Assembly (NCBI GenBank): GCA_964502565.1
Contig: CAZCXA010000002.1
Span: forward strand, 648 to 64,647
DNA length: 64,000 nucleotides
Reading direction: 5' to 3'
From: an uncultured Pseudomonadales bacterium
Lineage (GTDB): Bacteria; Patescibacteriota; Microgenomatia; UBA1400; PJMF01
Shown: positions 7,842-11,995 of the stretch, one piece after another
How the letters are laid out: each line of letters opens with the position of its first letter
Numbering within the stretch: the first letter of the stretch is position 1
The notes under the pieces: generated by a model
Told to the model about the DNA's origin: nothing
The model's database searches: none
What the model saw: the letters and a program-made list of their open reading frames with translations, nothing else
Program-made: the position numbers and the translations under genes

Positions 7842-8382
7842 AATAAAACGCTTTTAATTTTTAAAGTGAATCTTTACATTTTACAATAGCGTCCGAAGTA
7901 AGTCTTGCTTCAGCCAGACAACAAGGTAGCTATGAAAAATGTAAAAAATGTTCACTCTGTAACAAGTGAAGAAAACAAGGCTTCAATAGAACAAGTAAAT
8001 TCAATTAAATGTGTTCAGTCGACGATTAGTACAGCTAGGCTTAGTATCTCACGATACTTACACCGGCTGTCTATCAACGTGGTGGTCTACCACGTGTCTA
8101 ATGGAGATGATTAATCTTGGAGAAGGTTTCTCGCTTAGATGCTTCCAGCGATTATCCCGTAGGAATGTAGCTACCCTGCGCTGCCCTTGACAGGGACAAC
8201 AGGAACACTAGGGATTCCCTCACTTTGGTCCTCTCGTACTGAGAGCAAAACTCCTCAATCATCTAACGCTGACGGCGGATAGAGGCCGACCTGTCTCACG
8301 ACGGTCTGAACCCAGCTCGCGTACCGCTTTAATTGGCGAACAGACAAACCCTTGGGACCTTCTACAGCCCCAGGATGCGATG

Positions 8383-8681
8383 CACATACTCCACTATTAC
8401 TAGCGGTGTAGACTATATCATCATCCAACTTTGTTAAAAGTTGGAGTTCGGCGTATTATAAAAAGCCTTATTTTAATCATCAAATAACTGATAATTAATG
8501 CTTTCTATCTTCGTCTTTAATCAAGATTAAAGACTCCAGTCGTTACAGGGTCAATCCAGTTAATTAAATTAATAGGACGACTTCCCACGGTATTGCCCTC
8601 AAACCCAGATTTGGTGTAGGGGTTCACCGTTATAAGCCGAATTTAGCCTTTTAGATCTCTCTAAAAGGGGCCCTTCATTTG
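8383..8681 (-). other. Candidate group I intron / IVS (299 nt, no ORF) in 23S at the E. coli ~2593 site (GGCU|CAUC)
   Basis: An AT-rich block interrupts the conserved sequence GTCGGCT|CATCGCATCCTGGGGCTG. The 5' exon ends in U and the insert ends in G, as group I introns do. Without the insert the rRNA length is normal. Confidence 0.45.
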
Positions 8682-9253
8682 AGCCGACATCGAGGTAGCA
8701 AACCACGCCGACGCTAGGGACGCTTAGGCGTGATAACTCTGTTATCCCCAGGGTAGCTTTTATCCGATAAGCCCGGCACCTTCCACAAAGTGCACGGGGA
8801 TCACTATAACCTGCTTTCGCATCTGCTTGGCTCGTATGCCTCACAGTTAAGCACCCATATGCTATTGCACTTACAGCCTGATTTCCATCCAGACTAAGGG
8901 TACCATTGCGCGCTTGCGTTACCTTTTAGCAAGCAACCTCCCCAGTTAAACTATCCACCTGACATTGTTCCTGACCAAGTTTGCATTGGCCTTAGGTTAG
9001 ATGCTCTATAGAAAACGAGTGGTATTACATTGTTGAACTATGCCCAAGGCATAACTCTCCCACCTATTCTAGACAATCTTATATAAAGCACCAGTGTCAA
9101 GCTATAGTAAAGCTCCATGGGGTCTTATTGTCCTGCCGTCAGTAGACCGCATCTTTACGGCCATTTCAATTTCACCGAGTACCAGTTCAAGACAGTATTC
9201 CGCTCGTTAAACCTTTCGTGCGCGTCACCAATTAAGTGACAAGGTACTTCGCT

Positions 9254-9673
9254 CATAAATTCTATAATTTAGAATCCGGTTGTTATTTTATATTTCTATA
9301 AAAGTATGATCGATTTACATACACTCATAGTCGCCTATGAGATCGGACTATCTCTTCTCTTAATCAAGAGCTTGACGTATAGTCTCTGAGGATTTCTAAT
9401 CAAGTTAATATCCCAACTCATGTAGGTTTTATTTAAACCTTGATGAGTCTTAAATAGATCTTTCCTTGAGTAGATCTTTCCTGCTGATTGTCTGCACTTG
9501 AGTCATTTTTACGCAAAGTTATTATTGTTAATATATGTTGCTATCTAATTTATATTGCTAAACTAAACCTCAGCTTAAGCATCTTTAGCCTAAACATCTT
9601 AAATAAATTACGTAGATCAAGATTCTCAGATTTTCCAGCATATAGTCAAGTTTTACTAAGGCAACGAGTACTT
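9254..9673 (-). other. Candidate group I intron / IVS (420 nt, no ORF) in 23S at the E. coli ~1931 site (CTAAGGU|AGCGAA)
   Basis: A roughly 60%-AT insert lies between CTATAACTGTTCTAAGGT and AGCGAAGTACCTTGTC, both conserved relative to E. coli 1915-1950. The 5' exon ends in U and the insert ends in G. The longest internal ORF is 67 aa. Confidence 0.5.
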
Positions 9674-11995
9674 ACCTTAGAACAGTTATAGTTACTGCTG
9701 CCGTTCACCGGGGCTTAAGTCGCAAGCCTTAACCGAAGTTAAAACCCGCTTCCATGACCTTCCGGCACCGGGCAGGTATCAGCCCGTATACTTCCTCTTT
9801 CGAGTTTGCACAGACCTATGTTTTTGTTAAACAGTCGACGGAACATCTTTTGCTGTGCCCATCCTCTGCTTGCGCTTTGGATGGGAGGGCATCTCTCTAG
9901 ATTACGCCCAGCTATCTTGCCGAGTTCCTTAAACTGGCTTCTCTCGCTCTCCTTGGTCTACTCGACCTGTCCACCAGTGTCGGTTTTAAGTACGAATAAA
10001 CTTGATTCTCACTGCGAAAATTTTCCAGGATGCAGAACTCACGTTTAATCAGTCGCACCGAAGTTTGACTAATCCTATAACACCTCGCTTACTTCCCTTA
10101 CGGGGGGTTTGTTCAAGCGGATTTGCCTACTTGAACTAGCTGAGTGATTTGACCAAGACTTCACATCTTGATAAACGCTATCCCGCATCGTCCTTCCCCA
10201 GTTAATAATGAATCAAGCTTAGAACCGGAATGTTGACCGGTAATCCATCGGCTACCCCTGCTTTTGCAGGGCTGACCTTAGGGTCGCCTAACCCGCACAC
10301 GACGAACGTGGGTGCGGAAACCTTGGACATTCGGAGTTGAAGATTCTCACTTCAATGACGCTACTTATGCCAGCATTCTCACTTCTGATCACTCCAGCAG
10401 CTCCTTACGGGCCACCTTCAAAGCACACAGAACGCTCCCTTACCACTCATTCTAGTAAACTAGAACGAATCCTAAGCTTCGGTTAAACATTTGAGCCTCG
10501 TTAAATTTTCGGCGCATAAATCCTACGGCTAGTGAGCTGTTACGCTTTCTTTAAAGGATGGCTGCTTCTGAGCCGACCTCCTAGTTGTCTTAGGATCTAA
10601 ACTTCCTTTACCACTAAACATTTATTTAGAGACCTTAGCTGTGGGTCTGGATTGTTGCCCTGTTTGCTCACGGAACTTAGCTTCCGCGTGCTGAGTGCCA
10701 TGCCAGAATTGATGGTATTCGGAGTTTAACTAGACGCTGGAAGTTTCCTTCCGGACGCCCGATCAGTGCTCTACCCCCATCAATCTATAACATGACCCTA
10801 TACCTAAATATATTTCGGGGAGAACCAGCTAGCTCCAGGTTCGATTAGCATATTACCCCTATCCACAATTCATCCGAGACTCTTGCAGCAGTCACCGGTG
10901 CGGCCTTTCCCACATCTTTCGATATGGTGCAGCCTGATCATGGATAGCTCACCTGGATTCGGGTCGTTGAGTAACTACTTGCGCCCTATTCAGGCACGGT
11001 TCCTGTTGTTCAAAGAACAACAAAAACACTCGCTTTCACTACGGCTACGAGATGAGAATCTCTTAGCCTAGCAGTTACCCAACACTCGCCGGCTCATTCT
11101 TCAATAGGCACGAGATTACCCGCAATCCCGCAAAGCGGGACGAGGCTTTCTCTGTTTGTTAGTAGAAAGTTTCAGATACTCTTTCATCGGGTTTTCCACC
11201 CTTCTTTTCACCTTTCCCTCACGGTACTAGTTCACTATCGGTCTTGTTTGGTATTTAGCCTTGGAGTGTGGTCACCCCAGCTTAAAACGGGAGTTTGCCG
11301 TCTCCCATCCTATTCAGGAATCTCTCTAGATTGTTTTGGATTTTGCGTACACGACTTTCACGCTCTTTGGTCACTAATTCCATAGTGTTCTGCTATCCGC
11401 CACTCTCACATGTGAGAGTCCTACAACCCCCCTGTAAACAGGGGTTTGGGCTGTTCCCGGTTCGCTCATCGCTTACTAAGGGAATCTCTTACGATTTTTT
11501 TTCCTCCGGGTACTAAGATATTTCAGTTCCCCGACTTACCCCCGTGCCGTAAACGGCACAGTCATCTTGCTCTCACAAGATGGGGTTTCCCCATTCGGAC
11601 ACCGACGGGTTATGTGCTTTTTGCCAGCTAACCGTCGACTTTCGCGGGCTATACGTCCTTCATCGGCCAAACAAGCCTAGGCATTCGCTTTCTACGTTAG
11701 TTCACACAAGTTTAGTTAGACCCAAGGGTCTAACAAGATATTGAATTTGAAATTGAACTATTTTGACGATGTTTTCTTCACATGTTAAAGAGCGAAAGGA
11801 TGTTTTCATCTCTCGCAGTAGCCTCGCTGTCTGATTCTGTCAGACGCGCGTTGAAAACTGTTCAAGATGTTAAACATTCCTTATATTCAGTAATCTTTTA
11901 ACCGGTTCATTTTATTTTTTTCAAGCAACTTCCAAACATTTCTGATTTGCTAACCAAAAAGCAAGGTGTTACAAGAGACAATAAAAAGAACCCTG

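Follow-up and report, generated by a model that had tools for sequence, protein, structure and literature searches.

The 23S rRNA gene in the 64-kb stretch of DNA analysed here (the window), from a Microgenomates-like bacterium of the candidate phyla radiation (CPR; Patescibacteria), is interrupted by two ORF-less inserts which, on sequence grounds, are very probably group I introns that would be spliced from the precursor. One follows E. coli position 1931 and the other U2511, and they are termed L1931 and L2511. An earlier note on this DNA had proposed two ORF-less group I inserts in the 23S gene, and that much stands; its number for the second site does not. The gene, its neighbours and the sites concerned are as follows.

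8006..11710, minus strand: 23S rRNA gene with its two introns (Rfam LSU_rRNA_bacteria, 2124 bits over model positions 1-2925)
7726..7842, minus strand: 5S rRNA, downstream of the 23S gene (Rfam, 61.2 bits)
11995..12069, minus strand: tRNA-Ala(UGC), upstream of the 23S gene (ARAGORN, Rfam)
9254..9673, minus strand: L1931 group I intron, 420 nt, ORF-less, without P2, IB4-like (MAFFT, Rfam, homologues, covariation, absence in relative L249)
8383..8681, minus strand: L2511 group I intron, 299 nt, ORF-less, with P2 and P7.1/P7.2 (MAFFT, Rfam, homologues, covariation, absence in relatives L249 and L250)
8300..8301, minus strand: the site corresponding to E. coli 2593/2594, ACCGU/CGUGAGACAG, contiguous in the window, with no intron there

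Sites were numbered by MAFFT alignment to E. coli 23S rRNA (L001:990-3893). This places the 420-nt insert (window 9673..9254, minus strand) after E. coli 1931, at CUAAGGU/AGCGAA (the slash marks the junction), just where the earlier note had it. The 299-nt insert (window 8681..8383, minus strand) falls after E. coli U2511, at GGCU/CAUCGCAUCC. Its extent had been given correctly, but it had been attributed to site 2593, and the sequence there is contiguous at 8301/8300 (the E. coli context is AACGU/CGUGAGACAG). Site 2593 is the I-CreI/I-CeuI-type homing site; the second insert, being after U2511, is therefore not at it. The L2511 intron family also differs from that at 2593: its relatives have LAGLIDADG_2, and the chloroplast intron at 2511 is classed IA3. 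Other features that had been pointed out are borne out for both inserts. Each 5′ exon has U as its last base and each insert has G, the inserts are AT-rich (G+C 0.312 and 0.371 versus 0.483 for the exons) and, when the 719 nt that they add to the gene are taken out, the expected 23S of about 3.0 kb is left (2986 nt of exon). Within the 64-kb window Rfam finds no 16S gene, and there are no further copies of either intron elsewhere in it. The 23S copy number in this reduced CPR genome is probably one.

The introns are optional among relatives. In one of these (L249), which shares LepA-DUF5657-5S-23S-tRNA synteny with the window and has 23S exons 90–97% identical to it (LepA is 76% identical), both inserts are missing, exactly at the predicted junctions. 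In another (L250) the 2511 insert is missing. The inserts are not chance gaps, since the 80-mers obtained by splicing the window sequence match the contiguous L249 23S with 0 and 2 mismatches. Conversely, the same operon was recovered independently in the assembly of a different sample (L242, ERZ27247346), where it contains both introns and is 99.2% identical. Its introns differ from those of the window at 0 and 2 positions, one difference turning a C-G pair of P9 to U.G and one being in a loop.

The anatomy of each insert is that of a group I intron. Folding of P1 to P9, suggested in the earlier note as a check, works out, with P1 to P10 drawable for both. For L1931 the elements are:

9656..9667, minus strand: internal guide UCGUU-GCCUUAG (read from the sequence)
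9344..9389, minus strand: catalytic core (Rfam alignment, pair counts for P3/P7/P8)
9491..9630, minus strand: P5 with a long AT-rich peripheral extension (alignment, segment fold, MFE structure)
9254..9254, minus strand: terminal G, the omega-G (from the sequence)

P1 has 7 bp, between GCCUUAG of the guide and CUAAGGU of the 5′ exon, and places a U.G at the splice site; six of these pairs are invariant in five homologues. The contiguous UCGUU pairs with the 3′ exon AGCGA as P10. P1 is linked directly to P3 via UAAAA, with no P2. The core runs from J6/7 and the 5′ strand of P7 (UCAGAGACUA) through the 3′ strand of P3 (GUCAAG) and P8 to J8/7 and the 3′ strand of P7 (AAGAGAUAGUCCG). J8/7 is AAGAGAUAGUC versus AAGAUAUAGUC in three relatives. 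The P5 extension has about 130 nt more than its counterpart in L035, an ORF-less homologue. All five homologues terminate in UG/AGCGAA. The MFE z-score is −3.3, and the MFE structure recovers P3–P6 and P8. The site after E. coli 1931, the absence of P2 and the homology to four introns at the identical site (L012, L035, L038 and L094) are those of the IB4 type, a label taken from the published classing of L1931 introns as IB4 (PMC6125680).

The elements of L2511 are:

8669..8678, minus strand: guide region (read from the sequence)
8547..8586, minus strand: P6 with a 24-nt loop (alignments with relatives)
8462..8534, minus strand: hairpins P7.1 (GUCUUUAAUC and GAUUAAAGAC) and P7.2, between P7 and the 3′ strand of P3 (segment fold, MFE structure)
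8391..8452, minus strand: 3′ half of the core (Rfam alignment, pair counts)
8383..8383, minus strand: terminal G, the omega-G (from the sequence)

Pairing to the exons is shorter here. The 5′ exon GGCU is bound by the GGCC of GGGCC, a U.G again marking the splice site; together with a pair between intron C1 and the first G of that stretch, this gives a P1 of only 4 exon pairs and 1 intron pair. A P10 between AUG and the 3′ exon CAU is possible, with 3 pairs only; in relatives, the P10 guide varies along with the 3′ exon (alignment, by eye). P7.1 is of 10 bp and P7.2 is two-tiered, and there are equivalents in all five relatives. The 3′ part of the core has, in order, the 3′ strand of P3 (GCCGAA), P8, J8/7 with the 3′ strand of P7 (AUGAUGAUAUAGUCU), and P9 with a GUAA loop. 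All six family members end in AUGUG or AUAUG ahead of the 3′ exon. The MFE z-score is −4.9, with P2–P9 recovered. By its P2 and P7.1/P7.2 hallmarks L2511 is subgroup IA-like, and the more specific assignment to IA3 rests on the chloroplast intron at site 2511 (PMC2997540).

The Rfam Intron_gpI model (RF00028), whose use had also been suggested, gave a divided answer. L2511 scores 55.0 bits (8390..8691, model positions 1–253), above the gathering score of 50. L1931 falls slightly short, with 47.4 bits (E=4.4e-10, 9324..9752) when exon flanks are included and 39.8 bits when trimmed to the insert, probably due to its long P5, P6 and P9 extensions.

Each insert has clear homologues at its own site in other bacteria, and many of these contain LAGLIDADG endonuclease genes in P6 or P8. 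At the L1931 site, L012 (Patescibacteria) has a LAGLIDADG_1 gene in P6 and L094 an endonuclease gene in P8; L035 is ORF-less, 252 nt long, and scores 77.4 bits with Intron_gpI. The L2511 homologues (L201, L251/252, L253, L255/256 and L257) all have GGCU at the 5′ junction and G/CAUC at the 3′, and a LAGLIDADG_2 gene of about 590 nt in the P6 loop (the L201 ORF matches Pfam PF03161, E=7e-47). In the L2511 family, 94.3% of cells are paired and 17 of 47 pairs have changes on both sides, values that 0 of 500 shuffles reach, while slid controls do not exceed 41% paired or 6 double-changed pairs. The L1931 family has 98.3% of cells paired and both-sided changes in 22 of 46 pairs (0 of 500 shuffles; slid controls at most 44% paired). 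In both comparisons the alignments were hand-trimmed and the structure was drawn from the very sequences tested, a procedure that tilts the comparison with the slid controls towards the observed values. P7 is invariant or nearly so in both families, and P3, P5, P8 and P9 covary. The core helices P3–P8, including the P3/P7 pseudoknot, thus have comparative support in both (5–6 sequences, hand-trimmed). Position and anatomy are established, as is family membership through this homology and covariation, and Rfam matches, P1 to P10 pairing and precise absence in a relative accompany them in upholding the proposal that the inserts are group I introns. Pattern scans (CTAAGGTN{3,20}GCCTTAG in genomes and GATGTCGGCTN{4,16}GGCC in metagenomes) gave mostly chance matches; among the matches listed, true 23S introns were present at 4 loci in genomes and at 1 in metagenomes. 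In viral contigs, one pattern had 6 chance matches, within coding DNA, and the other had none.

That neither insert has a homing-endonuclease ORF, as the earlier note had it, is also the case. There are no sense-strand ORFs of 60 or more amino acids inside either, and Pfam gives no hit for the two largest that do occur internally. With the LAGLIDADG proteins of four relatives as tblastn queries, nothing significant was found in the two introns (best E=0.17) and nothing at E≤1e-3 in the whole 64-kb window, where these families have neither a maturase nor an endonuclease gene. Taking an encoded homing endonuclease as the mark of a mobile intron, neither is one. At both sites there are relatives with endonucleases (LAGLIDADG_1 at 1931 and LAGLIDADG_2 at 2511), and the window copies are therefore regarded as endonuclease-free derivatives. 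We infer a history of endonuclease loss, though tblastn reveals no gene remnant in place. Such introns would be unable to home alone, and would be inherited vertically until lost.

How the introns would leave the RNA can be proposed from their parts. The cores would fold within the precursor 23S RNA, and P1, with its U.G wobble at the splice site, would form between the internal guide and the end of the 5′ exon. Exogenous guanosine held in P7 would then attack that site. The terminal G of the intron would take the same pocket, with P10 positioning the 3′ exon, and ligation of the exons would restore the H69–H71 and peptidyl-transferase-ring sequences. Splicing may be autocatalytic or protein-assisted. 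Organellar IA and IB introns often require protein cofactors.

It is quite improbable that the inserts are group I-derived sequences that have lost splicing and are kept as expansion segments in mature 23S rRNA. A precedent is the L1931 intron of Simkania negevensis, reportedly described as unspliced by Everett and colleagues in 1999 (cited in PMC11270868), and the sub-threshold Rfam score and the J8/7 substitution of the window's L1931 point the same way. However, every core helix is intact, as are the U.G pair, omega-G and P10, and neither of the 2 intron differences between the two assemblies disturbs pairing. Moreover, the peptidyl-transferase ring, in which site 2511 lies, would presumably tolerate an additional 299 nucleotides poorly. 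A shade less probable again is that these are classical 23S IVSs, excised by RNase III without religation to leave a fragmented 23S. IVSs are known in bacterial 23S and, in the survey of CPR genes, are suspected for many short inserts elsewhere in the gene (PMC11270868). But classical IVSs replace the tips of helix 25 or helix 45 and have one long end-to-end stem, whereas the present inserts interrupt conserved junction sequence at sites 1931 and 2511, contain group I cores recognised by Rfam and supported by covariation, and carry guides complementary to both exons.

An origin of the inserts in faulty assembly has next to no chance of being right, and nor does the idea that this 23S is a pseudogene copy. 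Metagenome assemblies often break at ribosomal RNA operons, and five related contigs do terminate in or beside this operon. Yet both introns recur in the independently assembled L242, the exons match the LSU model over its full length, and homologous introns are found at exactly 1931 and 2511 in many other genomes. A group II intron was also considered and rejected, as there is no Rfam match and both inserts are too small.

If the inserts are spliced group I introns, as preferred here, one may ask why they are kept. We think it very doubtful that they are other than decaying remnants, with splicing co-opted, for instance, to check or regulate how the large subunit is assembled around H69–H71 and the peptidyl-transferase ring, and with the AT-rich extensions that make P5, P6 and P9 of L1931 unusually large serving as protein-binding platforms. 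A weaker version of this reading is that L2511 may be the first ORF-less bacterial intron described at site 2511. The literature found on that site consists of the Floydiella chloroplast intron (PMC2997540), and 2511 is not among the sites named in the main text of the CPR survey (PMC11270868), which are 1917, 1931, 1952, 2593, 2604 and 2657; the survey gives the coordinates of its hot spots 23IS9-11 in figures, and 2511 may be among them.

That survey, of CPR 23S genes (Tsurumaki et al. 2024, PMC11270868), reports 433 group I inserts in 348 genes, 222 of them ORF-less, with ORF-bearing and ORF-less versions sharing sites, and its hot spot ‘1931’ includes the I-ShaI intron. Insertion sequences are reported there to be absent from transcripts, i.e. 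removed. The earlier note's view that rRNA introns are typical of CPR bacteria accords with the intron-rich 23S genes so documented, and ORF-less 23S introns, being a well-documented CPR feature, are ordinary. The main value of the present case is for annotation, and current understanding is unchanged by it. Operons of this kind are where related contigs break off, so that calling CPR 23S genes and comparing them requires models that allow for introns. The site correction matters too: the 2511 lineage, with its IA-type RNA and LAGLIDADG_2 protein (at least 598 clusters of these endonucleases in public data), is separate from the 2593 lineage, and gains here a compact, 299-nt, endonuclease-free member. 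The window and its intron-less sister genome together illustrate the cycle of gain, endonuclease loss and intron loss of homing introns.

With the ORF-less introns of the CPR survey (PMC11270868) both introns share host group, gene and class of element. L1931 introns are known from Thermotoga, Simkania and Synechococcus (PMC1995217), and in bacterial, archaeal and organellar LSU genes generally (including Floydiella Ft.rrl.4) they share with the window copy the identical site, the guide GCCUUAG, the absence of P2 and the core motifs GCAGACAAUCAGCAGGAAAG and AAUCCUCAGAGACUA, with P3–P9 kept through compensatory changes. The window copy differs from them by the one J8/7 substitution, from the classical bacterial members (650–700 nt) in being without their LAGLIDADG_1 gene, and from ORF-less L035 in reaching 420 nt through AT-rich P5, P6 and P9 extensions.

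For L2511, the counterpart in the Floydiella terrestris chloroplast rrl gene is Ft.rrl.7, at site 2511, IA3, 402 bp and ORF-less (PMC2997540, Table 4). E. coli-numbered site, lack of an ORF and subgroup IA are common to the two, the window intron having the IA hallmark P7.1/P7.2; one is from a chloroplast and the longer, the other from a CPR host. They are presumably homologous, to judge from site and subgroup only. The LAGLIDADG_2-encoding CPR introns (L251/252 being from candidate division WWE3) have the same site and the same P2–P9 architecture with compensatory changes, though their P7.1 and P7.2 are unlike those of the window in length and sequence. They are 837–867 nt long, with a gene for an endonuclease of about 200 amino acids in the P6 loop where L2511 has 24 nt and no detectable remnant, and the core stretches AUAACGGUG, AAUACCGUGGGAAGUC, GUAACGACUG and UAUAGUCU are invariant between them and the window intron.

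The 23S rRNA gene of the window, aligned with MAFFT to its E. coli counterpart (L001:990-3893, the reference for site numbering), carries only two insertions longer than 35 nt, and both are group I introns. They are named here L1931 and L2511, after the E. coli position preceding each. The features of the operon are as follows.

7726..7842: 5S rRNA, downstream of the 23S gene (Rfam/ARAGORN scan of the window)
8006..11710, minus strand: LSU rRNA, complete bacterial (Rfam, 2124 bits)
8681..8383, minus strand: L2511, an insert of 299 nt after E. coli U2511 (MAFFT)
9673..9254, minus strand: L1931, an insert of 420 nt after E. 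coli 1931 (MAFFT)
11995..12069: tRNA-Ala(UGC), upstream of the 23S gene (Rfam/ARAGORN scan of the window)

The junctions are CUAAGGU|...G|AGCGAA for L1931 and GGCU|...G|CAUCGCAUCC for L2511. The earlier note had the first site right, and for the second it had the junction letters and the length right, but its assignment of that insert to 2593 is wrong. The E. coli 2593 context, AACGU|CGUGAGACAG, is unbroken in the window at 8301|8300, and L2511 lies 82 nt upstream of it, in GAUGUCGGCU|CAUC of the peptidyl-transferase ring. That the inserts are AT-rich and ORF-less is borne out (G+C of 31% in L1931 and 37% in L2511 vs 48% in the exons; no sense-strand ORF reaching 60 aa in either, and no Pfam match for the two largest ORFs inside them), as is a 23S of about 3.0 kb on their removal (the exons sum to 2986 nt).

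Four smaller expansions, of 29, 14, 33 and 20 nt, follow E. coli 275, 549, 638 and 1536 in the same alignment (11413..11441, 11122..11135, 10995..11027 and 10055..10074); at these sizes none can be an intron, and they are presumably extended helices. The operon at 7726..12069 consists of tRNA-Ala(UGC)-23S-5S only. Since Rfam and ARAGORN reveal no 16S gene anywhere in the 64-kb window, and upstream are rpsA and a 211-aa ORF without family matches, the 16S gene is unlinked. Elsewhere in the window there is a tRNA-Ile with anticodon UAU (18087..18161, plus strand; ARAGORN; Rfam tRNA 72 bits). In most bacteria AUA is decoded by a lysidine-modified CAU tRNA and a UAU isoacceptor is unusual. A 780-aa ORF (26207..28549, minus strand) weakly resembles conjugative coupling proteins of the TraD/VirD4 type (best NCBIfam E=1.4e-14, far below family cut-offs).

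Group I identity, as the earlier note proposed, is supported by Rfam matches, full P1-P10 anatomy, homologues at the same sites and covariation. Of the checks it had named, the Rfam Intron_gpI scan places L2511 above the curated threshold of 50 (55.0 bits) and leaves L1931 just below it (47.4 bits with flanks, E=4.4e-10; 39.8 bits trimmed), and manual P1-P9 folding shows the group I anatomy to be complete in each. In L1931, reading of the sequence gives P1 (CUAAGGU/GCCUUAG, with the U.G wobble at the splice site) and, directly adjoining it, P10 (AGCGA/UCGUU); P2 is absent. P3 is CUUGAC/GUCAAG, P4 is GCUG/CAGC, P5 and P6 are both long and AT-rich, and the strands of P7 are UCAGAGACUA and AUAGUCCG. 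P8, P9 (GCGA loop), more 3′ hairpins and the terminal G follow, and in J8/7 a U is replaced by G. L2511 has a short P1 (GGCU(C)/(G)GGCC, again with a U.G wobble), a short P10 (CAU/AUG), a P2 of 9 bp with a GAGA loop, P3 (UUCGGC/GCCGAA) with P4 to P6 next, P7 (A(C)GACUG/UAGUCU), P8, P9 (GUAA loop) and the terminal G. Two extra hairpins, P7.1 and P7.2, which are the hallmark of subgroup IA, separate its P7 from the P3 3′ strand.

When public genomes and metagenomes are scanned by sequence pattern, most matches are due to chance; the following homologues are among the matches listed.

L012, site 1931: Patescibacteria MAG, 707 nt, LAGLIDADG_1 gene in P6
L035, site 1931: betaproteobacterial MAG, 252 nt, ORF-less, Rfam 77.4 bits
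L038, site 1931: Pirellulales MAG, 520 nt
L094, site 1931: 667 nt, endonuclease gene in P8
L201, site 2511: 857 nt, 207-aa LAGLIDADG_2 gene in the P6 loop (PF03161, E=7e-47)

A search with the L201 protein finds at least 598 clusters at E<=1e-10, several of them source-named Patescibacteria or candidate division WWE3, and in all four cluster loci fetched the gene lies in an intron whose junctions are exactly GGCU|...G|CAUC. In alignment, long invariant core stretches are common to these gene-bearing introns and the window copy, whereas the P6 loop is about 590 nt with the gene in the former and 24 nt in the latter. One CPR 23S (L257) has at least three group I introns (1058..1308, 1734..2003 and 2312..3179): one at 1931 (62 bits), one between 1931 and 2511 (79.5 bits) and an endonuclease-bearing one at 2511 with no Rfam match at the gathering threshold. 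In several CPR 23S genes, extra LAGLIDADG ORFs follow the 2511 intron within about 200-300 nt (L251 3952..4605; L252 1515..2168; L253 3946..4608; L201 7811..8209) and suggest more introns nearby, possibly at 2593.

Unconstrained minimum free energy folding of both introns recovers most of the drawn helices, with z-scores against dinucleotide shuffles of −4.9 and −3.3. Pairs were counted on trimmed core alignments with structures drawn by the author, so that the following figures come from small sets, hand trimming and structures derived from the same sequences: in the L2511 family (six sequences) 94.3% of cells are in standard pairs and both sides have changed in 17 of 47 pairs, and in the L1931 family (five sequences) the values are 98.3% and 22 of 46. 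None of 500 shuffles equals this in either family. Sliding the partners lowers pairing to 33-41% for L2511 (1-3 columns; both-side changes in 0-6 pairs) and to 31-44% for L1931. The covarying helices are P3, P5, P8 and P9, plus P2 or P6a; P4 and P7 are almost unvarying, as expected of the catalytic centre.

The host is identified by the relatives of the LepA encoded beside the operon, the best named being Woesebacteria, Pacebacteria and 'Patescibacteria group' (62-69% identity) and the unnamed 76-99% identical. A DUF5657 gene is between lepA and 5S in all relatives fetched. A relative's contig (L249; LepA 76% identical) shares the order lepA-DUF5657-5S-23S-tRNA, and its 23S of 3147 nt has no group I match in Rfam; spliced 80-mers of the window match it contiguously, with no mismatch at 1931 and 2 at 2511. 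The 2511 insert is also absent from a second relative (L250). L242, in which the same organism was assembled independently, has both introns, with 0 and 2 differences (a P9 C-G become U.G, and one in a loop). Assembly artefact is rejected on this presence and the precise absence in L249; each insert is a discrete element, present in some genomes and lacking in others, whose borders are exactly those of a group I intron.

Immediately beyond the 2511 insertion site the 3′ exon is CACCGC in L249 and CAUCGC in the window; the change is inside the stretch that pairs in P10, and in the place where one would look for the target of an endonuclease. L249 has its own insert of about 166 nt (13355..13522; no Rfam match at the gathering threshold) near the 23S 3′ end, equivalent to about 8075 in the window, and in the same general region the window has a 16-nt deletion vs E. 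coli 2785-2800. L242 is otherwise near-identical to the window, with 37 of 39 differences clustered in some 160 nt of 23S exon (10339..10501, by estimate roughly E. coli 1130-1300), which may reflect strain variation in a helix, recombination of the segment or an assembly of mixed populations. Five contigs of this organism and its relatives (L243, L244, L247, L248 and L250) terminate within the rRNA operon or shortly before it, and at such assembly breaks the introns of many MAGs may go unseen.

Excision from the 23S precursor by splicing is the best-supported fate for both introns, judged from sequence. It would proceed by the standard guanosine-initiated two-step transesterification, autocatalytic or aided by host protein. 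P1, P10, the P7 pocket and the omega-G are intact in both; against this are the sub-threshold Rfam score of L1931, the substitution in its J8/7 and the shortness of P1 and P10 in L2511. According to the account of Brown et al. 2015 in PMC11270868, transcripts of CPR rRNA genes lose their insertion sequences. Autonomous homing is impossible since neither intron has an endonuclease gene, and no LAGLIDADG gene of either family (1931- or 2511-type) is present elsewhere in the window.

The two introns are useful for annotation and unsurprising, the kind of element being already known. No paper naming site 2511 in bacteria was found in the literature searched, though 2511 may be one of the CPR hot spots 23IS9-11, whose coordinates PMC11270868 gives in figures only. 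In that CPR survey 82% of 348 23S genes have inserts, of which 433 are group I-like; 222 of these are ORF-less, and ORF-bearing and ORF-less versions occupy common sites (PMC11270868). Introns at 1931, of class IB4, have long been known from Thermotoga, Simkania, cyanobacteria, organelles and archaea (PMC1995217, PMC6125680). The chloroplast rrl of Floydiella terrestris has an ORF-less subgroup IA3 intron at 2511 and a second ORF-less intron at 1931 (PMC2997540, Table 4).
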